Sequence record: MT446416.1
DNA length: 64,000 nucleotides
Direction: 5' to 3' (one strand)
Origin: Escherichia virus TH47
The notes beneath the pieces were generated by a model. The model was not told where the DNA came from. It saw nothing but the letters and a program-made list of their open reading frames with translations, and ran no database searches. This document shows, in pieces, positions 1,537 through 59,514 of this stretch (its first letter is position 1; every line of letters starts with the position of its first letter). The position numbers and the translations under genes were made by a program.

Positions 1537-3823
1537 ACGCAATAACTTTTTCTACTGCTTTAGTTCGTTTAGGTTTGATTGCCAATTTACCATCAATCAC
1601 ATCAAACGTTACGTTACCACCATTAACCAGAGAACCACACAACATCTCTTTAGCTAGTGGGACACGGATGTTTTGCTCAATAGTGCGTTTCATTGGACGT
1701 GCACCCATTCCAACTTTAACACCATTTGTTGCCAACCACTCACGAGCCGCTTTGGTCAGTGAAACTTTAACTTTGCGGTCTTTGATTTGTTCATTCAAAC
1801 TTCCCATGAACTTATCAATGATGCTGTCAATCGCTTCGCTGCTTAGGTCTTTGAATGTCACAATACTATCGATACGGTTGATGAATTCAGGTGGCAAGAA
1901 TGCTTTAATCGCTTTATCTTGTGCTGTATCACTACCGCTCATCCCAATACTACGCTTGGTTGAATCTGCTGCACCAAGGTTAGTCGTCATAATAACAGTT
2001 ACGTTATTGAAGTAAACAGTTTTACCTTGTGAACCAGTCAAACGTCCTTCGTCCAGAACCTGTAGGAAGGTTAGTAGTACTTTACGATCAGCTTTTTCGA
2101 TTTCATCGAGCAACAGTACTGCATTCGGGAACTGCTCAATCTTGTCGAGTAGCAGACCGTTACCAGAATCGTGACCAACATAGCCTGGAGGTGAACCAAT
2201 CAGTTTAGCAACAGTATGTTCCTGTGAAAACTCGGACATATCGAAACGAATCAGTTCAGAACCAGTTGCATCAGCCAGTGCTTTGGTAATTTCAGTTTTA
2301 CCAGTACCAGATGGCCCAACAAACATGAATGCACCTTGAACACTTGATTTATCACGCAGACCAGCACGAGCTACCATCACGTTATCAACCAGTTTCTGTA
2401 CTGCTTCTTCTTGACCGTATACACGAGAACGGAGTGCATCTGGTAGATTACGCATACGTTCACTTTCAGTGCAAGCAACCACGTTAATATCTAGGTTTGC
2501 GATACCTGCAACAACTTCTTGAATCAGTGCAACAGTGATGATGTTATCATCAGTTTCACGAGAACGTACTTTCGCTGCCGCCGCATCCATTAGGTCGATT
2601 GCTTTGTCAGGGAAGTGTTTGTTCTTCAGGAACTTATCACTTAGTGTAATAACTGCATCCATTGCTTCAGTACTGAACTCTACGTTATGGAAAGTTTCAT
2701 AAGTAGATTTCAAACCATTCACAATCGCACGGGTTTCATCAATTGATGGCTCAACTACATCAATTTTCATGAAACGACGAGTTAGTGCACTATCTTTTTC
2801 GATGTTTTTACGATATTCATCGTAAGTTGTTGCACCGATTACACGAATCTCACCACGAGATAGTGCAGGTTTGAGCATGTTGCTCATATCCATAGAACCG
2901 TTGCTTGCTGAACCAGCACCAACCATAATATGGATTTCATCGATGAACACAATAGTGTTTTCACGTTTCTTCAGTTCTTTTAGTAGGTTATCGATACGTT
3001 CTTCGAACTCACCACGGTACTTAGTACCAGCAGTCAGTGCACCTACGTTCAGAGACAGAATTTCAACATCTTTAAGATGCTCTGGTACTTCACCATCAGC
3101 GATTGCCTGTGCTAGACCATCAATGATTTGAGTTTTACCAACACCAGCTTCACCAGTCAGGATGGCATTCTTCTTAGTCTTACGGGCCAGAGTTTCAATC
3201 AGTGCAGAAAGCTCTTTCTGGCGACCAATCATTGGGTCAAGTTTACCTTCTTTTGCAAGTGCTGTTAGGTTAGTGGTGTAATCTTCTAAACCTTTTTGTT
3301 TGGACGATGGTTGCTGTTGTGCCACTTTTTTCTCCCCAGTTGGCTCATCACTAATGCTTTGAAGGTTGATTCCGTTGTCGATTGCTTCTACGTGCTTCTG
3401 TAGAGTTCGTGCTGCTTCAGTACAAGTGATACCCTCTTCACGCAATGCTGCTTCTAGTGCAGTATTTGGGAAGGACAAACACTCAAACAGTACAAAATAA
3501 GCATCAATTGAGAAATCATCACGTTTAAGTTGCTCAATTACTGATTTCTTAGAAAGTTCCTGAACTACACGGTTCACGAGAAGTGATGTGCGGTTCGCTT
3601 CATCACCATCAGCACTTTTAGGTGCATGTGGGAATGTTGTATTCTTCAGATATGCAATCAAACGACCGTGTAGGTTGTCTGCATCGATGTTCATATCTTC
3701 AAATACTGCTTTGATGCTATCGATTGTCAGTACTGTAGCACTTAGATGGTCAATAGTCAAGAAGGTATGACCCAGAGAAGTTGCCAGTTCGTCGCTTTTT
3801 TTGAATAATTGGGTAAGATTCAT
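1535..3823 (-). CDS. ClpA-like two-domain AAA+ unfoldase (Clp ATPase family)
   Basis: Clp N-domain-like N-terminus; two Walker A motifs (GEAGVGKT, GPSGTGKT) and Walker B motifs (VFIDEIH, LLLDEIEKA); start placed at ATG with AGGAGA RBS (ORF track starts at upstream GTG 3847). Confidence 0.9.
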   Translation of the reverse strand: MNLTQLFKKSDELATSLGHTFLTIDHLSATVLTIDSIKAVFEDMNIDADNLHGRLIAYLKNTTFPHAPKSADGDEANRTSLLVNRVVQELSKKSVIEQLKRDDFSIDAYFVLFECLSFPNTALEAALREEGITCTEAARTLQKHVEAIDNGINLQSISDEPTGEKKVAQQQPSSKQKGLEDYTTNLTALAKEGKLDPMIGRQKELSALIETLARKTKKNAILTGEAGVGKTQIIDGLAQAIADGEVPEHLKDVEILSLNVGALTAGTKYRGEFEERIDNLLKELKKRENTIVFIDEIHIMVGAGSASNGSMDMSNMLKPALSRGEIRVIGATTYDEYRKNIEKDSALTRRFMKIDVVEPSIDETRAIVNGLKSTYETFHNVEFSTEAMDAVITLSDKFLKNKHFPDKAIDLMDAAAAKVRSRETDDNIITVALIQEVVAGIANLDINVVACTESERMRNLPDALRSRVYGQEEAVQKLVDNVMVARAGLRDKSSVQGAFMFVGPSGTGKTEITKALADATGSELIRFDMSEFSQEHTVAKLIGSPPGYVGHDSGNGLLLDKIEQFPNAVLLLDEIEKADRKVLLTFLQVLDEGRLTGSQGKTVYFNNVTVIMTTNLGAADSTKRSIGMSGSDTAQDKAIKAFLPPEFINRIDSIVTFKDLSSEAIDSIIDKFMGSLNEQIKDRKVKVSLTKAAREWLATNGVKVGMGARPMKRTIEQNIRVPLAKEMLCGSLVNGGNVTFDVIDGKLAIKPKRTKAVEKVIA

Positions 3824-3861
3824 GTATTCTCCTAAATGAGTAGTCACTCTAATTAATAAAC

Positions 3862-3889
3862 ATTATATCACATTCTTTGCGTTTGTCAA
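3862..3889 (-). promoter_or_regulatory. sigma70 consensus promoter (TTGACA-N16-TGaTATAAT) driving the ClpA-like gene
   Basis: minus-strand reading gives TTGACA, 16-nt spacer, extended -10 TGATATAAT, about 35 nt upstream of the ATG; same 13-nt -10 block as the two copies at 27336-27457. Confidence 0.65.
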
Positions 3890-3931
3890 CAAGGTAAATA
3901 AAGATATACCCGATTTATTTTGGAGACAAAC

Positions 3932-5428
3932 ATGACATACAGAATGTGGAAAAAAGGTAGAACCAATGATTACAAGTTCATTGACTCTGCCATAGCAGAA
4001 CAATACAACATCGGTGGTGTTGACATGTGGCTTTATGCCTATGTCGGACCAAAACAAGTCGCTGATAACACTGATTTATCATATGGCGGTGATTATTATG
4101 GTTCAGATAGTACCGTTGTGTCAAGCATTGGTGATTTAATTTTTGGTGACACTCCAAGTCGTAACTATAATCTCGAAGCTATCACCTTAAGTTGCGTCTA
4201 CCAAGTCCAAGAAGCAACTCCTGACTTGAAAATCCCAGGATTGTTCTTCAACTTTAACACTATGGACATCACAATTCATTATAACACAATGATTCAGCGT
4301 TTGGGAAGAAAAATTATGCCAGGTGACGTAATCGAACTCCCTAACTTACGTGATTTTGATGTACTTGGTAAAGATTCTGGTTTAAATCGCTTCTATGTAG
4401 TACAAGATGGGTTTAGAACATCAGAAGGTTACTCAGTTACATGGCAACATCACATTTACAAACTCCGTGTTAAACCTCTTACTGATTCACCAGAGTATTC
4501 AGACCTTCTAGGTAACAATAACTACCCTGATGACCCAGATGAACCAAACAACGGCAATGGTAATACTGATGATGGCTCTTCAGAGAACAGCAGCTATGGT
4601 AATGAAATGGACATTATGAACCGTATCATTATGCAAGCTGATGATGAAGTACCATACATTCATTTTACTAACGAACACTTGTTCGATGACAGACCAGATA
4701 CCGTTGATTTGTCTAAGTATATGCTAAATGGATACGAATTACCAGAGGAACCAGCAAATAAAATGTATTTCCTCAAGAAAACTTACCCAGTACTGAAAGA
4801 ACTATCTAATGATACATGGATTTCTGTAGAAGTCAAGCGTGGAACAATCTTTCCTCGCAAACCGATGGATGGTGACTTCTTCTTTAAAGAAAACGAGGCT
4901 GATGTCACTGGCTTCTCATTGTATCAATACGATAAATCTGCCAAAAAGTGGCTAAATTGTGATGTTGAGTATACTACAGAAAGCACACCACCACAAGGGG
5001 TTGATGATTTTTATATTGAATACAAAGAACCACACATTTATCAGTACTTAAATGGTAAATGGGGAGAACCAGAAGTAACTTACGTTAATGACCCATTCAC
5101 TTCTAATAGTGTTTATGGAAATATCGATTCACAACAAGATTATCGTCCTAAGATTCCTCCAGCACGAGGTACAGTTCCTGAAGGTAATATGTTCCCAAGT
5201 GATGCAGTTGATGGTGATTACTACTATCGTACCGATTATACACCAGTAACCCTATGGGAATACAGTGCATCCAAGAATTCTTGGGTGATTTTCGATTACG
5301 GTGGTAGAAAACCGTGGGAAGGTGCAGATCTTGCTCTAACAGAATTTGTTAATAGCCCGAACCGTGTACCATTACATGATGCAGTTAAACCTAATACAGC
5401 GTATCGTATACATAAGGATTCAGAATGA
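3932..5428 (+). CDS. hypothetical protein, possible virion (neck/tail completion) protein
   Basis: ORF with GGAGA RBS 6 nt before ATG 3932 (track starts at TTG 3920); stop overlaps next start (ATGA); no motif recognised. Confidence 0.6.
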   Translation: MTYRMWKKGRTNDYKFIDSAIAEQYNIGGVDMWLYAYVGPKQVADNTDLSYGGDYYGSDSTVVSSIGDLIFGDTPSRNYNLEAITLSCVYQVQEATPDLKIPGLFFNFNTMDITIHYNTMIQRLGRKIMPGDVIELPNLRDFDVLGKDSGLNRFYVVQDGFRTSEGYSVTWQHHIYKLRVKPLTDSPEYSDLLGNNNYPDDPDEPNNGNGNTDDGSSENSSYGNEMDIMNRIIMQADDEVPYIHFTNEHLFDDRPDTVDLSKYMLNGYELPEEPANKMYFLKKTYPVLKELSNDTWISVEVKRGTIFPRKPMDGDFFFKENEADVTGFSLYQYDKSAKKWLNCDVEYTTESTPPQGVDDFYIEYKEPHIYQYLNGKWGEPEVTYVNDPFTSNSVYGNIDSQQDYRPKIPPARGTVPEGNMFPSDAVDGDYYYRTDYTPVTLWEYSASKNSWVIFDYGGRKPWEGADLALTEFVNSPNRVPLHDAVKPNTAYRIHKDSE

Positions 5429-19829: not shown

Positions 19830-21794
19830 ATGAGTATAAATCGAATTAGAGGTGATGGTGGTGTAATTATAGATAGTCAGGCATTTCTAGAATTACCTAA
19901 AGCACCGACTAAAGAAACCGCTGATGTGGTTAGATCAGGGATGATTAGATACAATAAAGGATGGAAAGCATTTGAAGGTGTACTAGACTTTGAAGATGGT
20001 TCAATGGCATATCGACGTTTTGCAAACCTAGATGCGAACGGTAAACTTCTTACTTCCCAATTACCAGATTCAGTAACTAGTGGTTTACAATTTGTTGGTA
20101 CATATAATCCCATCCCAGATGATATCGATCCACCTTTAGCACAAACTCCACTACCAGCACCATCACCATCGCTTAATGGTGATTATTATGTCGTTCGTGG
20201 TATAATGGATGCCGCACAAGCACATTATGAAGCAAATAATCCACAAACAAGTCCTGTTACATTTACACCTACAAATCCAACTGGACAAGGTAATTGGATT
20301 GAAATTTTATATTATGTTGACTCTAATCCAAATATATCTGGTGCTAAACTAGTAACATACGCTTTTGCTAGAATTATTACTGCATCTATTCCCAGTACTG
20401 GACATGATGGCCTTGAAAATTTAGCAACAGATACTGACTTGACCAAACCATTTGCATCTGGTGTTCCAATGAACCAAACTGCACTTTCAGATGGCGATTG
20501 GATTATTATAACTGAAGATAAGAATATACGTCTTCGTCAGTCAAGAACAAGCATTTCCGCTGCTTCAGTATTATATGACAATACTGTAATGATTGCAAAT
20601 CATCGTCAATTTAGAACAAACGCAGGGACCGTTCAAACATCCATAGATAACGTTGTGATTGAGTGTTTACGTAGAACTGGCGATTCCATGTATAATGATG
20701 GAACAGACGGCTCTGGGCGTTTTGGGGTGGTGTATGGCAGTGCAGCAGCACCAGCATTGACATTTAATAATAATCCGTTTGACCCAACGAATAACCCAGG
20801 TAATGACCCAACTAAGTGGTCCGATGCTAATACTGGTATATTTCATCCATCCGATGACGCAATTGGGTTCAGCACTGCTGGCACAGAACGTGTTCGAATT
20901 AATAATGGAACACTAACATTATTCCAAACTACCGCTACACCAGCAGCTACGCCAGTAATACGTTTTGATAATGCATCAAACACAAACGTAGGGATAAGTG
21001 CAAGTAGTAATATTATTTCTTTAAGTTCAATGAATAAAGTTCAAGTTGAATTTAAAAATGGTGAATCACATTTTCATGGAAATATTATTGTAGATGGTTC
21101 AACATCACTAACTGGTGATTTAGACGCAGGTAACATCAATGCCAGCGGGAATTTAGTTGTTAAAGGTAATACAACACTAGGTGACACTACTGGTGACACT
21201 ATTACAGTTAATGGTGTTAGTACTTATAATGCAAATACTAATTTCAATGGAACTAATAACAAATTCAAAAACATAAACTTACTAGAGAATGGTGTATTCA
21301 CATTAGAAAGTACTACAAACCAAAGTGATATAAAACTACTTGGTGCAGACTTACGTTTCACTATGGGAAGTTATGCTGATGTAAGTATATATGATAACGG
21401 TGTTATTCGTACTCGTTTCAACCGATATGGTATTCAATTACCAGTACTGGCTACAATTGATAACTCGGTTGGTGTTGATGGTATGATTGCATACTCAAAT
21501 ACCGAACGTACATCGATGCAGAAGGTTCAAGGACAATGGGTTCCAATTGGTTCTGGTTCTGTTCGTACTGACCCGTTTGTTGCGTCAGCGTGGGTTTTAA
21601 ACGGCTCATATTACACATTAACAGTAACTGCTAGTAACATAGTAACTGCTGAAATTCAAGAACTCGTAAGTACTGGTGTTTACACTCGTGTTGAAGTTGA
21701 TAGTGTTACATTCAATGGAACAAGCGTAGTGTTCAGTATCCCTGCAACTCCTGATGTGAGATTTGCCGGACGTACACTGGTTACATTAAGATAA
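19830..21794 (+). CDS. tail fibre protein
   Basis: 654-aa ORF, GAGGAAA RBS; Asn/Thr/Gly-rich with fibre-type repeats; ends at bidirectional terminator. Confidence 0.55.
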   Translation: MSINRIRGDGGVIIDSQAFLELPKAPTKETADVVRSGMIRYNKGWKAFEGVLDFEDGSMAYRRFANLDANGKLLTSQLPDSVTSGLQFVGTYNPIPDDIDPPLAQTPLPAPSPSLNGDYYVVRGIMDAAQAHYEANNPQTSPVTFTPTNPTGQGNWIEILYYVDSNPNISGAKLVTYAFARIITASIPSTGHDGLENLATDTDLTKPFASGVPMNQTALSDGDWIIITEDKNIRLRQSRTSISAASVLYDNTVMIANHRQFRTNAGTVQTSIDNVVIECLRRTGDSMYNDGTDGSGRFGVVYGSAAAPALTFNNNPFDPTNNPGNDPTKWSDANTGIFHPSDDAIGFSTAGTERVRINNGTLTLFQTTATPAATPVIRFDNASNTNVGISASSNIISLSSMNKVQVEFKNGESHFHGNIIVDGSTSLTGDLDAGNINASGNLVVKGNTTLGDTTGDTITVNGVSTYNANTNFNGTNNKFKNINLLENGVFTLESTTNQSDIKLLGADLRFTMGSYADVSIYDNGVIRTRFNRYGIQLPVLATIDNSVGVDGMIAYSNTERTSMQKVQGQWVPIGSGSVRTDPFVASAWVLNGSYYTLTVTASNIVTAEIQELVSTGVYTRVEVDSVTFNGTSVVFSIPATPDVRFAGRTLVTLR

Positions 21795-21801
21795 TAAAAA
21801 A

Positions 21802-21828
21802 GGGAGACATAAGTCTCCCTTTTCTTTT
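21802..21828. terminator. bidirectional rho-independent terminator
   Basis: stem GGGAGAC/GTCTCCC flanked by A-run and T-run between convergent fibre and thymidylate synthase genes. Confidence 0.65.
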
Positions 21829-43978: not shown

Positions 43979-44029
43979 TATATTCTCCGAAAAGAAAGGA
44001 CTCTGTAATCAGAGTCCTTAATTTATATT

Positions 44030-44272
44030 TTATTCTTCTTCACCGAATCGAATTTTTTTCAATTCTTTTCGTTGTTTGCGAGCAATGGTACTTTTGTGAA
44101 GTCTATTACCACGTTTTGTGTCTTTCGTGATGTACCATGAATCTTCTGGTGCATTATAATCACAATAACCATCTTCTGTAATCGTCCCTAAGAAAGCAGA
44201 CTTTTTAGGAATGGATGTTTGAGCTTTAGCAGCGAATTGGCCTTTTGCTAATTGTTCACGAAAACTGAGCAT
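44030..44272 (-). CDS. hypothetical basic protein
   Basis: start at ATG with GGGAGA RBS (track begins at TTG 44287). Confidence 0.45.
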   Translation of the reverse strand: MLSFREQLAKGQFAAKAQTSIPKKSAFLGTITEDGYCDYNAPEDSWYITKDTKRGNRLHKSTIARKQRKELKKIRFGEEE

Positions 44273-44317
44273 AATAGTATCTCCCAAATTGTTACGAAGA
44301 ACTTGTGTTCTTCATTA

Positions 44318-44560
44318 TTATTTAGGGTTGCTCGAAACCTCTACTGAAGCGATGAATGCCAAAATATCATCTTTACTGAAAGCTTCAATAATATAAGCAA
44401 CCGCTTTATCGTACTGTTCTTTCTTAGTAGTGTATTCTTTCATTTTGTGAATTTTACGTTGTGCTTTAACTTTTGCAGCTTCCATATCAGGCATTTTAAA
44501 TTCAACACCCAATGTGTCAGCTAAATGTTTTGCACGAGATGATACTTTATCAATATTCAT
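44318..44560 (-). CDS. hypothetical protein
   Basis: 80-aa ORF coupled to glutaredoxin gene. Confidence 0.45.
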   Translation of the reverse strand: MNIDKVSSRAKHLADTLGVEFKMPDMEAAKVKAQRKIHKMKEYTTKKEQYDKAVAYIIEAFSKDDILAFIASVEVSSNPK

Positions 44561-44808
44561 TAATTCCAGCGACCTTCTTTAAGACCTTCAACGAAACCAG
44601 TACAGCCACCTGGAACGTAAACATCGTTTACGAAAATTTGTGGAACCTGTCGTACTGGCTCGCCACATAGTTCAGATAGTTTAGCACCATCAATACCAGC
44701 GGTAACAATATCGATAAACTCCATATCAAATTTGTTATTTTCACATACTGCTTTTGCAGTGTCGCAGAATTTACAACCAGTAGTGCGACCATAAATTTTA
44801 ACTTTCAT
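44560..44808 (-). CDS. glutaredoxin/thioredoxin-like protein
   Basis: 82 aa with N-terminal CKFC redox motif and Grx-like length; AAGGGAAA RBS. Confidence 0.65.
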   Translation of the reverse strand: MKVKIYGRTTGCKFCDTAKAVCENNKFDMEFIDIVTAGIDGAKLSELCGEPVRQVPQIFVNDVYVPGGCTGFVEGLKEGRWN

Positions 44809-56322: not shown

Positions 56323-56964
56323 TCATATTTTATTTATAGTAATGGTGATATTAAAACTTTCTATATCATTCTTTAATATATCAACTCGTTTTCGTAAACC
56401 ATCTATAACTTCTGGTATTACATCATTTTTATACATCTCTATTAACTCTTCTATATATTTTTTCTTTTCTATCTGCCACGCACGATGTGCATCTTCTGGA
56501 GTTTCATAAACACCAATGTATGTTGTTTTATTATATATTGTTATTTTAGCACAATAAGGTTTGGTATATTCACTCACCATGTCTTTTGGACGTTTTCTGT
56601 ATATCACTCCCATTCCATATGGTGATGCATTTGCAGCACTGTCTAGTATACAGTAATTCAATTCTTTGGGAACAAATGCACATGTTTCAGGAGAATAGAT
56701 TTTCTTACTCCCACCAATAATATCTTTATCTAATTGATATCCTTCTTTATAATGTGATTTGTACCAAATTTTAAATTTTGAATAATACTTCCACTCATCA
56801 CATACAACAGTTCCAATATAAGAACCCTTAGCCTTATCGGAATAGCATCGGTCTAACATACGTTGCCATGCACAATATATTGCTCGATCTGGATTTGTTA
56901 TACTAGCATCACCTTTTATATCACAGATGCCATGACCATAAAACTTCTTCATTAATTTATCCAT
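56323..56964 (-). CDS. AP2-like DNA-binding domain protein (homing-endonuclease-associated family)
   Basis: C-terminal YIGVYETPEDAHRAWQ resembles AP2 domain; N-terminal W..M..RC...Y....C..W pattern. Confidence 0.4.
   Translation of the reverse strand: MDKLMKKFYGHGICDIKGDASITNPDRAIYCAWQRMLDRCYSDKAKGSYIGTVVCDEWKYYSKFKIWYKSHYKEGYQLDKDIIGGSKKIYSPETCAFVPKELNYCILDSAANASPYGMGVIYRKRPKDMVSEYTKPYCAKITIYNKTTYIGVYETPEDAHRAWQIEKKKYIEELIEMYKNDVIPEVIDGLRKRVDILKNDIESFNITITINKI
56331..56338 (-). promoter_or_regulatory. T4-late-promoter-like TATAAATA box
   Basis: exact TATAAATA on the minus strand about 38 nt upstream of the Dps-like start. Confidence 0.3.
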
Positions 56965-56974
56965 ATTTTTGTAA

Positions 56975-57403
56975 TTAGTTAATAATAAAGGTAACTTCAG
57001 GATTCATTTCTGAAACTGCATTTCTTTTACTTCTATTCCATAGTACTCTATTGTTATATAATGAAGAATCACAAATTATAAGTAAGCAATTCCTTAATCT
57101 ACTTACAGTACTTTGATTACTTAAATCAGTTTCTGTAACAAAAAATACATTATCAGGAACTTCTACAGGAATTGATTTATCAAAGAAGAAAACTACAATA
57201 GGTCTGTTTGTATGAACTAAATTAATAAAGTCTAAAATACTGTTATAAAATTCAGTTCCTTTGTTTAAACTTAATGGATCTTTGATCCTCTTCAAATATG
57301 TCTGAACCAATTTATGATCGTTTTTGATTTGATACTCAAAATATTCTTTGAATAACATTTGTGTTAATTCAGATGTATTGGATATTTTCGTTGTGTTACT
57401 CAT
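56975..57403 (-). CDS. hypothetical protein
   Basis: 142-aa ORF. Confidence 0.45.
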   Translation of the reverse strand: MSNTTKISNTSELTQMLFKEYFEYQIKNDHKLVQTYLKRIKDPLSLNKGTEFYNSILDFINLVHTNRPIVVFFFDKSIPVEVPDNVFFVTETDLSNQSTVSRLRNCLLIICDSSLYNNRVLWNRSKRNAVSEMNPEVTFIIN

Positions 57404-58093
57404 TCACTTCGTTCTCTCGTAACTCAAGAAGTCACTACGTTTACTTCGTAAACTAGTTCCTTCTGAAAATGATAATGTACTTTAAAAGCTTGACGGGATT
57501 TGTTGAGGACTATTTCATCCCCCCGCAGGGGAATGAAGGTAATAAAAAAGAGACAATTAAGTCTCTCTTGACGATGATGGCATCGGATATTATCGAATTG
57601 CGAATTTCTCAAATTTTGGACGGATCTTTCTTGTACCAAAATTTAGAGAGCGAAAGCGGGTTGCTCGGTTTCTCTCTATCGCAGTCATATGCAACGGTCG
57701 CTGGTCTTTTCATCAACAGCACTCAGTACTAAACTCTATTCGATCAAAGTAGTACCTGTTCTCAAATTTTGGACGCAACTTTCTTGTAAAATCGCGTCCA
57801 CAATCCTTGAACTCCCTTAGCAAATTCGTAAGGTGCGAACCTTATACATCTATCTAGGAACTCTCTGTGTGCTTATTGGAGTTCTTTATACAGCCGTGTC
57901 GCCGTGATTCGTGGTCTTATCTCGTGTTTGTTTGATTGCCAGTACTCTAACAGGTTTCTTTTGCTGTTCGCTACAACGGTAAAGCTCATCTATCCTTTAC
58001 ATTTTCAAGAGAAGTAGGTTCTCATTATCCATTTTTCAATGTCCGTTGTCATTTTACAATATACATTATATCACTAGGATGTATTATGTCCCG
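57404..58093. other. ~0.7-kb low-coding region with direct repeats, hairpins, a minus-strand terminator and an extended -10 element
   Basis: no ORF over 90 codons; TTCTCAAATTTTGGACG repeated at about 57608 and 57751; hairpin AGAGAC/GTCTCT plus T-run (minus) near 57540-57570; TGATATAATG near 58058-58070. Confidence 0.4.
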
Positions 58094-58492
58094 TTACATG
58101 TATACCTTTTTCAAATCCTTGGAACAACGGTCAAAAATTGTTTTGATGAATTCGACATCCTCTTTGATATTGGAGTCTATAGCATCATTCTCGTTTCTTG
58201 TCGTGTTCCTGTATTTGTGTTCAGGGTGATTGTATACCACCTTGACTACATTATTTAGGTCTACAAAAAATGACGATTTTTGCGTATAGGAAGCCTGAAG
58301 CTTAATGAGTTTACCATCGTTTTGTAGATTAGTCTTGTGAATTAGTTCTTCAATACCATCTAAATGGCTATAGCTATCCTGTTCTTTGACGAATGTAACA
58401 GTTACCAGTACTGACTTCTCATCTCCAAAGTCAGAGATATTTTTAACAGCACTGATGATTTCTAAGTTTGAAAAATCTAATTCTTTTAGCAT
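58094..58492 (-). CDS. hypothetical protein
   Basis: start at ATG overlapping upstream stop (TAATG). Confidence 0.45.
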   Translation of the reverse strand: MLKELDFSNLEIISAVKNISDFGDEKSVLVTVTFVKEQDSYSHLDGIEELIHKTNLQNDGKLIKLQASYTQKSSFFVDLNNVVKVVYNHPEHKYRNTTRNENDAIDSNIKEDVEFIKTIFDRCSKDLKKVYM

Positions 58493-58848
58493 TACAAGTA
58501 TTTCCATAAAGTTCGATAAGTGATAATTTCTTCTCTGGTAACAGAAACTTCATAGCACTTAACACCATCAGTTTCATTTCTGAATGGTTCTGCTGGTCTA
58601 TCTTCTGTTAAACCTCGTTCATACGTACAATGATAATATTTGTTCGTGTTCATGTCAAGAAAAACTAGATCAAATTCTTCTGTCCATCGTCTATGCCCTT
58701 TACTTTCATTACTAATGATTTTGTACTTAACATCTGGATTGAATGATTCAGTACTGTCATCCCATGTACCATAGTCAGTATATTCATCATCTTCATCTAA
58801 CTCTGCCAGATGCCACATTAACTGCGGTAAAAAGATTTTAGATTTCAT
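58492..58848 (-). CDS. hypothetical protein
   Basis: 118-aa ORF with GGAGAAA RBS. Confidence 0.5.
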   Translation of the reverse strand: MKSKIFLPQLMWHLAELDEDDEYTDYGTWDDSTESFNPDVKYKIISNESKGHRRWTEEFDLVFLDMNTNKYYHCTYERGLTEDRPAEPFRNETDGVKCYEVSVTREEIITYRTLWKYL

Positions 58849-58902: not shown

Positions 58903-59514
58903 TTAATTGTGATTATTCAATTTCTTTTGTTCTTTTTTTAGAGCTTTCATATGTCGTCCAAAATCACGGACATGCCATATATGGTCGGTTTCCCATAGTT
59001 CTGTACGTAAACGGCGTTCTTCCAATTCTTCTGGAGTAGGAATTTTAGATTTCTTCTTATCTTTATTGAAAAAATCATTCATATGTTCTTCCAGTAGATT
59101 TCTACCCTTAACTTTTTCCAGGAATTCATCTACTGATTCAGTTTTATTAGAACGAAGACTGTTACAACGTGAACACATTGTGTTGTAATTTGACTCTAAA
59201 TCAGGTCCACCCTTAGATGCTAGTTGGTTATTATCTACTGTCATCAGTACTTCATATAGACCACAAACTGCATAGACATTTAAGTGAGGTTTACCATATA
59301 CCGGATCTGTGCTATGTGAACGCTCAATGCGAACTTCAGTAGCTTCAATGCCACACGCAACGCATTTGCAATTCTTAACGAATGTCAGTACTTTTTGTGG
59401 GAAGTATCGGAAAGTAACACCGTTATATGTATAGCGTTTCATCTGTGTACTTCTTTGATTTAACTCATTAAGAAGTGATAGTTTGGCAACATAGTAGACC
59501 TGATATTTTGACAT
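58903..59514 (-). CDS. HNH-type endonuclease-like protein
   Basis: CxxC...H...N...CxxC arrangement (CVACG, HLNVY, NN, CSRCN); GAGGA RBS. Confidence 0.45.
   Translation of the reverse strand: MSKYQVYYVAKLSLLNELNQRSTQMKRYTYNGVTFRYFPQKVLTFVKNCKCVACGIEATEVRIERSHSTDPVYGKPHLNVYAVCGLYEVLMTVDNNQLASKGGPDLESNYNTMCSRCNSLRSNKTESVDEFLEKVKGRNLLEEHMNDFFNKDKKKSKIPTPEELEERRLRTELWETDHIWHVRDFGRHMKALKKEQKKLNNHN

Follow-up and report, generated by a model that had tools for sequence, protein, structure and literature searches.

Organization of the locus

The sequence analysed here is a stretch of 64,000 nt of Escherichia virus TH47 (GenBank MT446416.1), referred to as the window. The subject is a region of the window at positions 57404-58093, which would contain a gene for a large, structured non-coding RNA (ncRNA). 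The genes surrounding this region are situated on the minus strand. It is flanked by an open reading frame (ORF) of 137 amino acids (aa; 58094-58507, DUF7325) and by one of 142 aa (56975-57403). In Pfam and PHROGs scans, the flanking genes yielded DUF7325 and a protein without assigned function, with neither an initiator gene nor an iteron run alongside. The content of guanine plus cytosine (GC) of the region is 0.40-0.41 versus 0.24-0.36 in the flanks. Together with its flanks, the region is 99.6% identical to the Escherichia phages EC.P1, Ecwhy_1, and fEgEco12, and 97% identical to phage 121Q; judged by its sequence, the window phage is an Asteriusvirus, i.e., a RaK2-like jumbo myovirus of ~350 kb.

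An initial annotation, made from the letters alone, had described the region as the longest stretch of the window without a convincing ORF, carrying a promoter, a terminator, direct repeats, and hairpins on the minus strand. Concerning its rank, this description holds at a threshold of 60 aa on either strand, where the largest ORF-free gap in the window (57733-58045) lies inside the region, whereas at 90 aa the region takes second place. The sole longer stretch without an ORF of at least 90 aa on either strand, at 43979-44797, is covered by ORFs of 60-90 aa. The lack of coding capacity itself was borne out: among 22 homologous copies no ORF is conserved in strand or position, and the longest ORFs vary in both. 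Both strands contain short ORFs, which are labelled as hypothetical proteins in some database records.

All features of the RNA described in the following are situated on the minus strand of the window unless stated otherwise. The promoter (58065-58092) consists of a -35-like box GGGACA (58092-58087), a spacer of 16 nt, and the extended -10 element TGATATAAT (58073-58065), with the hexamer TATAAT at 58070-58065 preceded by TG; it obtained 10 of 12 points in a promoter scan and corresponds to the extended -10 that the initial annotation had placed near 58060. Transcription would start near 58058, and the RNA body would extend from there to the U run of a terminator (57543-58058; ~515 nt), the respective length across the family being ~480-570 nt. 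The motif TGnTATAAT is invariant in 21 of the 22 copies and is kept in copies from a prophage and from an Escherichia coli island (see below). A -35-like box TGrrAC(r) is conserved ~17 nt upstream of it and is retained together with the RNA in the prophage as well. For phages CBB and GAP32, a divergent class of RpoD-like promoters with TGAAACG at -35 has been described, which is found mainly upstream of DNA-synthesis genes (PMC5259590). The promoter of the element belongs to this unusual class, and the TGrrAC(r) box may serve for factor binding and be more than a weak -35 element.

Distribution and paralogous copies in RaK2-like phages

By a sensitive BLAST search, the region was matched in 71 phage records, all of them from RaK2-like jumbo phages of Enterobacterales; the genera carrying the element include Asteriusvirus, Mimasvirus, Eneladusvirus, and Alcyoneusvirus. 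DNA identity of the element ranges from 66 to 97% across these phages. Between genera it amounts to 66-71% over ~470 nt, and the match always falls into a gap that is unannotated or filled by tiny hypothetical ORFs. In comparison with the PBECO4 group, the non-coding core of 690 nt is 96% identical, and inclusion of 100 nt of coding flank on either side lowers the identity to 93.8%, such that the RNA is better conserved than the genes flanking it.

A profile hidden Markov model (HMM) and a covariance model each found exactly one copy in the window and four in the complete genome of phage 121Q (NC_025447.1), at 90263-90797, 192730-193414, 247429-248113, and 326576-327229, the third of which is orthologous to the window copy. 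All four are situated on the strand bearing most genes, and four matching places were also found by BLAST in most of the related records. Among themselves, the paralogues are 58-73% identical. One copy follows the RNA polymerase sigma-factor gene in 121Q as well as in RaK2, and another is situated between the endonuclease VII and baseplate hub genes in 121Q, Serratia BF, 7t3, EJP2, and Hallingskeid. The positions of the paralogues are thus orthologous across genera, and the duplications are therefore older than these genera. A further 2 kb of the 121Q genome without annotated gene (135194-137161), situated outside the window, exhibit no match to the RNA family with either the profile HMM or the covariance model.

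Concerning the orientation, co-stranded downstream genes are found at the window copy and at three of the four copies of 121Q. In the five phages just named, the copy of the endonuclease VII lineage is antiparallel to both of its neighbours; there it is therefore not the leader of a downstream gene but a self-contained RNA gene. A neighbouring protein shared by the copies, which might have been the partner in a ribonucleoprotein, was not found, and the proteins encoded downstream of different copies are mutually unrelated.

Evidence for a conserved fold

Two alignments were used. The first (A2) contains 22 distinct copies and spans the inferred start site through the conserved tail. The second is based on a covariance model of the 3' core (R1, 192 positions), to which 41 matches were realigned, yielding 33 distinct rows; helix P11 was left out of this model. 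As a control, the 3' partners of all helices were moved by 1-3 columns (slid partners).

On A2, RNAalifold predicted 70 pairs, 35 of which show compensatory changes. A manual model with ~19 helices, including two pseudoknots, was set up, according to which 88.8% of the cells of A2 form standard pairs (36-45% with slid partners), 55 of 93 pairs are changed on both sides (20-24 with slid partners), and the covariation score is 0.345 (0.055-0.092 with slid partners). None of 500 shuffles reached the observed values; this significance is overstated, as the sequences are related by descent, and the slid-partner controls are the fairer measure. In the core alignment, 93.4% of the cells pair (33-46% with slid partners) and 29 of 39 pairs covary. 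Helix P11 exhibits covariation in 9 of its 10 pairs in this alignment, which was not fitted to it. The slid-partner controls and this helix, which was not imposed by the covariance model, constitute the more trustworthy part of the evidence.

Within the well-aligned helices, 99 cells are G-U or U-G, as opposed to 19 that are A-C or C-A. Since G-U exceeds A-C to this extent, the pairing constraint acts at the RNA level and on the minus strand of the window. The folding energy of the single sequence is modestly better than that of shuffles on either strand (minus strand, z = -2.9; plus strand, z = -3.35); as it does not discriminate between the strands, the strand is assigned by the asymmetry of G-U and A-C cells, the promoter, and the terminator. 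The case for the fold, as it presents itself in the alignments, is one of comparison rather than of thermodynamics.

The first pseudoknot is formed by the strand ACAACGG at 58043-58049 and the loop CCGUUGU of hairpin P4 at 57973-57979. The variable 5' leader is poorly aligned in A2, and pseudoknot 1 and hairpin P2 were therefore checked copy by copy; the weakness of pseudoknot 1, P2, and the outer part of P11 in the A2 count is an effect of misalignment in segments of variable length. An equivalent helix of pseudoknot 1 occupies this position in every copy examined; its complementary sequences differ, with at least 11 variants, e.g., ACAACGG/CCGUUGU, CUGAUUGA/UCAAUCAG, GUGUGG/CCACAC, and AUGUUGG/CCAACAU, as well as UCAUAAG/CUUAUGA against UCAUGGG/CCUAUGA.

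In the second pseudoknot, the loop of 7 nt of P11 (AUCGAAU, 57738-57744) pairs with a strand 140 nt downstream (AUUCGAU, 57592-57598), which is situated beside helix P14. It pairs in 99-100% of the cells, and both sides are changed in four of its seven pairs in the alignment of 22 copies and in all seven in the core alignment of 33 rows. Each lineage possesses a matched pair of its own: the window lineage has AUCGAAU/AUUCGAU, the endonuclease VII lineage AUUGUAU/AUACAAU, the sigma lineage AUUGCAU/AUGCAAU, and RaK2 CUUGAAU/AUUCAAG. A further long-range helix proposed by RNAalifold, between GAUG in the region joining P3 and P4 and the terminal CGUC, was not adopted, as it exhibits zero covariation and is broken in several copies.

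The comparison with related phages, which had been suggested as a check on the conservation of structure, revealed covarying helices in an element present in 71 phage records; conservation on this scale is not explicable by chance. A structured non-coding RNA, one of the possibilities named initially, is supported by the conservation, the compensatory changes, the strand-specific G-U pairs, and the lack of a conserved ORF. A decayed gene, another of these possibilities, is at odds with an element that is better conserved than its coding flanks, keeps covarying helices across genera, and persists as four paralogues per genome.

Architecture of the RNA

The 5' strand of pseudoknot 1 is followed by hairpin P2 with a GAAA loop and by hairpin P3 with the invariant loop GAAAAYGUA. 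Hairpin P4 (GCU...AGC, 57970-57985), whose loop provides the other strand of pseudoknot 1, pairs in 100% of the cells, and two of its three pairs covary. The subsequent P5/P6 domain (57890-57967) has ACAGC/GCUGU as its outer and CUGU/ACGG as its inner stem; its internal loops AAAAGAAAC and CAAUGCGGC are conserved, and its distal stem varies. In P5, 98% of the cells pair and three of five pairs covary; in P6, 95.5% pair. In hairpin P8 (GAACUC...GAGUUC, 57858-57884), 94% of the cells pair, and all six pairs are changed on both sides. Hairpin P9 is situated between P8 and the invariant single-stranded motif CUAAGGGAG (57812-57820), of which UAAGGGA is found in 22 of 22 copies of A2 and the final G in 21. 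No start codon or ORF following this motif is conserved among the copies.

The motif is followed by P10 (57758-57811), a peripheral hairpin of variable length, which ranges from a GNRA-capped hairpin of 12 nt in GAP32 and CBB to more than 50 nt in the window. Hairpin P11 (57726-57755) carries the loop engaged in pseudoknot 2, and hairpin P12 lies between P11 and the most conserved block of the RNA, CGACCGUUGCAUAUGACUGCGAUAGAGAGAAACCGAGCAACCCGCUUUCG (57650-57700), which contains the 5' strand of P14 and hairpin P15. This block, CGACCGUUGCA...GAGAGAAACCGAGCAACCCGCUUUCG, is nearly invariant in all copies, RaK2 included. P15 pairs in 100% of the cells, with a compensatory change from A-U to C-G in RaK2. 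A second peripheral hairpin of variable length, P16 (57607-57649), follows; all pairs of its foot covary and 100% of the cells pair there, whereas its inner part is missing from many copies. The 3' strand of P14 (UCGCA, 57599-57603) passes directly into the 3' strand of pseudoknot 2; P14 pairs in 99-100% of the cells and covaries in four of five pairs. Hairpin P17 is situated between pseudoknot 2 and the terminator. In the alignments, the helices are seen to be connected by purine-rich, invariant joining regions.

The two peripheral hairpins each hold one unit of a direct repeat of 30 nt (P10 that at plus-strand positions 57759-57788, P16 that at 57606-57635), the units being identical at 28 of 30 positions and 153 nt apart. 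Both these two repeat copies and the hairpin GGACGC..GCGTCC (within 57758-57811) listed in the initial annotation were found in place. The consensus of the repeat as a sub-module of the RNA is UACAA-nnAG-nUnnGUC-nAAAAUUYRGAGAA. It is situated only at P16 in GAP32, CBB, and Munch-like copies, only at P10 in Serratia BF, 7t3-like copies, and two 121Q paralogues, at both sites in the window and in the E. coli island, and at neither in other members. From this distribution the direct repeat is read as a duplicated peripheral RNA module and no iteron. The earlier suggestion of iteron-like elements fails on the same grounds, as there are only two repeats, 153 nt apart, which form a sub-module at one or both of two peripheral sites; furthermore, at least three regularly spaced repeats of ~17-22 bp, an AT-rich region, and an initiator gene, as expected of an iteron-type origin or partition site, do not exist at the locus.

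Terminator and 3' end

The intrinsic terminator (57543-57566) was read from the sequence as a hairpin AGAGAC-UUAAUU-GUCUCU (57566-57549) with a T/U run at 57549-57544, which agrees with the hairpin and T run previously noted near 57545; a generic terminator scan missed it. Its stem covaries, four of five pairs being changed on both sides, and in homologues it appears as GUACAC/GUGUAC, GAUCC/GGGUC, and GUACU/AGUAC. The terminator is found in the window and in most copies.

Downstream of it, a second hairpin, UUCAUUCCCC-UGC-GGGGGGAUGAA (57514-57537), with CCCC paired to GGGG, is nearly invariant and present in every copy; the hairpin CCCC..GGGG of the initial annotation is this one. In it, 95% of the cells pair, and its U-G wobbles alternate with C-G or U-A pairs, which indicates pairing at the RNA level on the minus strand. 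It is followed by a 3' tail, AUAGUCCUCAACAAAUCCCGUCAAGC (57488-57513), which ends with ...CCCGUCAAGC and is conserved in all copies. The motif CGUCAAG exists twice, just before the terminator (57567-57573) and at the end of the tail (57490-57496). Between lineages, the two motifs vary in parallel (CGUCAAG, CGUCAG, and, in RaK2, CUUCAAG), and a search for a complementary partner sequence of these motifs found none. The parallel change suggests a common recognition or processing factor rather than mutual pairing.

The stretch between the tail and the next ORF (57404-57487) is less conserved and contains a motif, GAACGAAGUGA, common to other copies. Other jumbo-phage copies have similar motifs behind the tail, and the copies of the E. 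coli island and of Citrobacter have looser versions of them. Past the tail, jumbo-phage copies from outside Asteriusvirus exhibit a hairpin AAAATTCTTTGACATTCGAAGAATGGC. In the window, 57404-57487 overlaps the ribosome-binding region of the 142-aa ORF. Elsewhere in the window, 37 nt at 21785-21821 are 81% identical to the part of the element comprising terminator and second hairpin (query 130-166; E = 8.5e-4 within the window), which is probably merely a similar terminator.

Further from the element, an ORF of 213 aa at 56323-56964 on the minus strand encodes an HNH homing endonuclease (phrog_953, E = 6e-65) and is situated between the 142-aa ORF and a DUF5856 (Dps-like) gene. The homologues of the latter two in 121Q, gp517 and gp518, are adjacent; the ORF at 56323-56964 looks like an insertion of a homing endonuclease adjoining the RNA locus. 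A second ORF of HNH-endonuclease type (203 aa, 58903-59514, minus strand), with weak Pfam matches to HNH and HNH_5, lies upstream of the RNA locus and corresponds to gp513 of 121Q.

Copies outside the jumbo phages

A scan of 185,579 species-representative bacterial genomes with a pattern of 26 nt gave one hit, on a contig of 620 kb of Citrobacter amalonaticus P55 (NZ_JBALIF010000001.1). The respective locus (L067) contains a full copy of the RNA at 3519-4113, preceded by two tandem promoters TGAAAC-N17-TGGTATAAT (L067:3420-3520). The copy is situated between the gene for a large serine integrase of 520 aa and a gene for a CI/LexA-like repressor with a divergent cro-like gene; beyond the integrase, the host gene for a type II secretion ATPase follows. 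The Citrobacter copy sits in a temperate prophage. Within the 8 kb of this locus, nucleotide similarity to any phage record is confined to the RNA. A metagenome contig of 29 kb exhibits the same order as Citrobacter, i.e., integrase, RNA, orf165, and cI. In L067 as well as in metagenome contig L082, orf165 (165 aa, no assigned function) follows the RNA on the same strand.

In E. coli, 2 of 5,426 complete genomes (LR-29-1 and EEC_W5; loci L092 and L093) carry an unannotated copy. It is part of an island of 10 kb inserted between ffs and ybaA, in which the RNA occupies L092:9001-9583; the island also contains a resolvase gene, the gene of a tyrosine integrase that is interrupted by IS3, and, as candidate defence genes according to PADLOC, PDC-M45 (DuOB, DUF488, mSLOG/DUF4326). 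About 700 nt past the RNA in L092 (9585-10297) are likewise unannotated. The island copy is 80.6% identical to the copy of the endonuclease VII lineage of Eneladusvirus. As this identity is far above that between paralogues, a fairly recent horizontal transfer took place.

All 21 metagenome hits and the Citrobacter hit proved to be genuine family members, whereas the search of a plasmid collection yielded no copy. Two kinds of candidates were rejected. The 16-mer GAGCAACCCGCTTTCG is found at 22 loci of viral contigs that have no further similarity to the RNA family; 13 of the 22 share one coding-like context (a presumed integrase gene), and the other nine are scattered and unrelated. Two further matches to a two-block pattern were due to chance.

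Comparison with known RNAs

The checks against known RNAs that had been proposed initially, by Rfam covariance models and tRNA finders, gave no known RNA family and no tRNA. With Rfam 15, no covariance-model hit was obtained in the whole window at the gathering thresholds, and at 57200-58300 with E up to 10 only weak matches to the unrelated families HPnc0580, a fungal snoRNA, and mir-205 appeared, at 13-18 bits versus thresholds of 37-55. The families covered include GOLLD, ROOL, OLE, HEARO, raiA, RNase P, tmRNA, and 6S, and also group I and II introns, hammerhead and other small ribozymes, and riboswitches. ARAGORN found no tRNA or tmRNA gene in the whole window, and literature searches on these phages did not find a description of the RNA. 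Short motifs resemble RNase P (CGACC..UGCA..AGAGAG..AACC; AGAAACCCG), the hammerhead core (GAUGAG-stem-CGA), and the T4 td intron; these resemblances were treated as chance, since the order of the elements differs and Rfam gives no match.

Among bacteria and phages, the known large and elaborately folded RNAs are very few: rRNA, RNase P, tmRNA, group I and II introns, OLE, GOLLD, ROOL, raiA, and HEARO. The features by which large ornate ncRNAs are described are all found in the window RNA, i.e., a length above 400 nt, invariant blocks, covarying helices and pseudoknots, and carriage by mobile elements. By size, ornateness, and carriage in phages and prophages, GOLLD and ROOL (Rfam RF01998 and RF03087) are its nearest analogues. 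With ~500-800 nt, they are similar in size to the window RNA, and like it they possess invariant nucleotides between covarying helices as well as pseudoknots, and are stand-alone RNA genes of phages or prophages with no biochemical function assigned; the cited report describes both as forming homo-oligomeric assemblies, seen by cryo-electron microscopy (cryo-EM; PMC12286853).

Despite this general similarity, there are clear differences: The window RNA matches neither of the two covariance models, so that the resemblance is one of kind and not of descent. GOLLD and ROOL are known from Firmicutes or from lake and rumen metagenomes, whereas the window RNA is found in phages of Enterobacterales, with four paralogues in 121Q; the window, in which ARAGORN detected no tRNA gene, also offers no linkage of the RNA to such genes.

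For PA5oct, a jumbo myovirus related to the RaK2 group, RNA sequencing (RNA-seq) defined four unannotated intergenic transcripts of 236-619 nt, ncRNA001-004, two of which make up ~5% of the phage reads (PMC7318152). Such jumbo phages therefore do express abundant long ncRNAs. The comparison of two of the four, ncRNA002 and ncRNA004, with the RNA family, by profile HMM (nhmmer) and covariance model, revealed no homology.

With regard to type III toxin-antitoxin systems, the locus exhibits no tandem array of 34-36 nt of the ToxI type, and the downstream proteins are mutually unrelated. Neither orf165 of L067 nor the neighbours of the RNA in the E. coli island gave a PADLOC toxin match; the neighbours in the window were scanned against Pfam and PHROGs only.

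Proposed function and alternative explanations

The region at 57404-58093 probably constitutes an independent gene, which encodes a large, structured non-coding RNA of a hitherto undescribed family; this RNA would act in trans in its folded form. By comparison of the copies, a conserved, strand-specific, and pseudoknotted fold is seen with its own promoter, usually with its own terminator, and with no conserved coding or partner gene; the same comparison reveals four ancient paralogues per jumbo phage and the transfer of the cassette into a prophage and an E. coli island. The functional product would be the RNA itself; a role as coding sequence, as cis-regulatory leader, or as DNA site is not assumed. 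Action in trans is preferred because the only context common to the copies is that of mobile elements, the positions outside jumbo phages being typical sites of cargo or morons.

Concerning the transcript ends, the action in trans, and the biological role, the following course of events is proposed. Host sigma-70 RNA polymerase would initiate at the extended -10 near 58058 on the minus strand, probably in the early or middle period, and would transcribe ~515 nt to the intrinsic terminator at 57543-57566; part of the transcripts would probably continue through the second GC hairpin and the tail to ~57488. According to the comparative model, the RNA would fold into ~19 helices organised by the two long-range pseudoknots. 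The folded RNA might then act in trans as a protein- or RNA-binding scaffold, as an oligomeric assembly, or as a catalyst, in host takeover or in conflict between elements.

Several observations weigh against this explanation or its details. The searched literature contains no expression data or transcriptome of a RaK2-like phage, so that the transcript, its ends, and its abundance are all inferred. The contexts of the copies have no neighbouring protein gene in common. Part of the statistical support, i.e., that from shuffles, is inflated by common descent, as mentioned above. No terminator is recognisable in the gp415-lineage and sigma-lineage copies of 121Q, and in the RaK2 copy it is reduced to a small GCUUAGC hairpin with a U run. 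The conserved second hairpin, the tail, and the repeated CGUCAAG lie past a good terminator, and conservation at that place would also fit a cis-acting or read-through mechanism. Because conservation runs past the terminator and some copies are without one, the RNA would end at the terminator or after it, possibly with more than one 3' end.

A more far-reaching form of the trans-acting explanation is possible, although it is put forward tentatively: The RNA may represent a class that is traded among the mobile elements of Enterobacterales, either as an RNA-only assembly in the manner of ROOL and GOLLD, or as a ribozyme or effector in conflicts between phage and host or between phages. If true, this would explain why lytic giants have retained four paralogues whose pseudoknots each form a matched "address" of their own, why the RNA occupies the moron position between integrase and repressor in a temperate phage, and why the E. 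coli island holds it beside candidate defence genes.

Among the explanations that compete with a trans-acting RNA, a cis-acting leader is the foremost, but it is unlikely. The RNA would here modify the polymerase or sense a signal and thereby govern read-through of the terminator, in the manner of put or EAR elements, of an attenuator, or of a riboswitch. Antitermination RNAs of the put/EAR type are 70-120 nt long, and each acts in cis on the polymerase transcribing it; like the window RNA, those of HK022 and Bacillus are structured and situated directly behind a strong promoter and before terminators, and HK022 possesses more than one copy per genome. The strong terminator followed by a conserved hairpin, tail, and second CGUCAAG speaks for this explanation. 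The co-stranded downstream genes in the window and at three of four 121Q copies, and orf165 in the prophages, point in the same direction, and several copies per genome, each behind a strong promoter, recall putL and putR of HK022. The copy of the endonuclease VII lineage, however, stands between genes of the opposite strand in five phages of at least three genera and thus has nothing to lead into, the genes downstream are unrelated among the contexts, and the prophage copy is transcribed toward a convergent repressor gene instead of heading an early operon. With ~500 nt and ~19 helices, the RNA is also far above the size of any known antitermination RNA.

An origin of replication is improbable. 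The transcript of a middle-type promoter would form an R-loop and prime the leading strand, as at oriF, oriG, and oriE of T4 or with RNA II of ColE1, and the four copies would be four origins. These primer transcripts resemble the window RNA in being non-coding and having a defined promoter, T4 possesses several origins, and for RNA II the folding matters. Four copies in one orientation spread round a T4-like genome of 348 kb would suit this explanation, as would a promoter class found in the CBB study mainly before DNA-synthesis genes. The conserved G6/C4 hairpin just past the U run might be added, as interactions of G and C runs matter for the ColE1 RNA II hybrid. Unlike the known primer regions, however, the element is relatively GC-rich, more so than its flanks and thus not easily unwound, and it ends in a terminator; no origin would be expected where the single copies are situated, between integrase and repressor in the immunity region of a prophage and on a small island of a chromosome, and two pseudoknots with ~19 covarying helices exceed the needs of a primer.

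Slightly less probable still is a selfish or relic mobile RNA, e.g., a derivative of a self-splicing intron or ribozyme, which would spread between intergenic sites without benefit to its carrier. Several copies per genome, the presence in three unrelated kinds of mobile element, the recent transfer indicated by 80.6% identity between the E. coli island and Eneladusvirus copies, the HNH homing-endonuclease genes nearby in the window, and short stretches with a loose likeness to the cores of phage group I introns and RNase P are in line with it. The positions of the paralogues, however, are stable and orthologous across genera, and with differences of 30-40% among paralogues there has been no recent transposition within the genomes; the element possesses a promoter and terminator of its own instead of flanking exons, no endonuclease or reverse transcriptase is consistently linked to it, and the Rfam models of group I and II introns, RNase P, and small ribozymes gave no hit with E up to 10. 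Finally, a DNA-level repeat, be it an iteron array or a site of packaging or partition, or else a protein gene that is decayed or very small, to which the two direct repeats of 30 nt, several palindromic stretches, and the short, partly annotated ORFs on both strands might point, is largely refuted, since there are only two repeats at a distance of 153 nt and many family members are without one, since variation preserves RNA pairing with strand-specific G-U cells (99 versus 19), and since no ORF is conserved in 22 copies of a region that outconserves the neighbouring genes.

For the phages that carry it, the trans-acting RNA would have a portable and dosage-sensitive function, because ancient paralogues are kept, the element has the highest nucleotide conservation of its neighbourhood, and the cassette has moved into a prophage and an island. 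The respective loci in ~70 phage genomes are at present unannotated or mis-annotated as tiny hypothetical proteins. Each newly found large structured RNA has opened new biochemistry or structural biology, and, unlike GOLLD and ROOL, this one is carried by phages that grow on E. coli K-12, O157, Salmonella, and Klebsiella and is thereby open to genetics, RNA-seq, structure probing, and cryo-EM.

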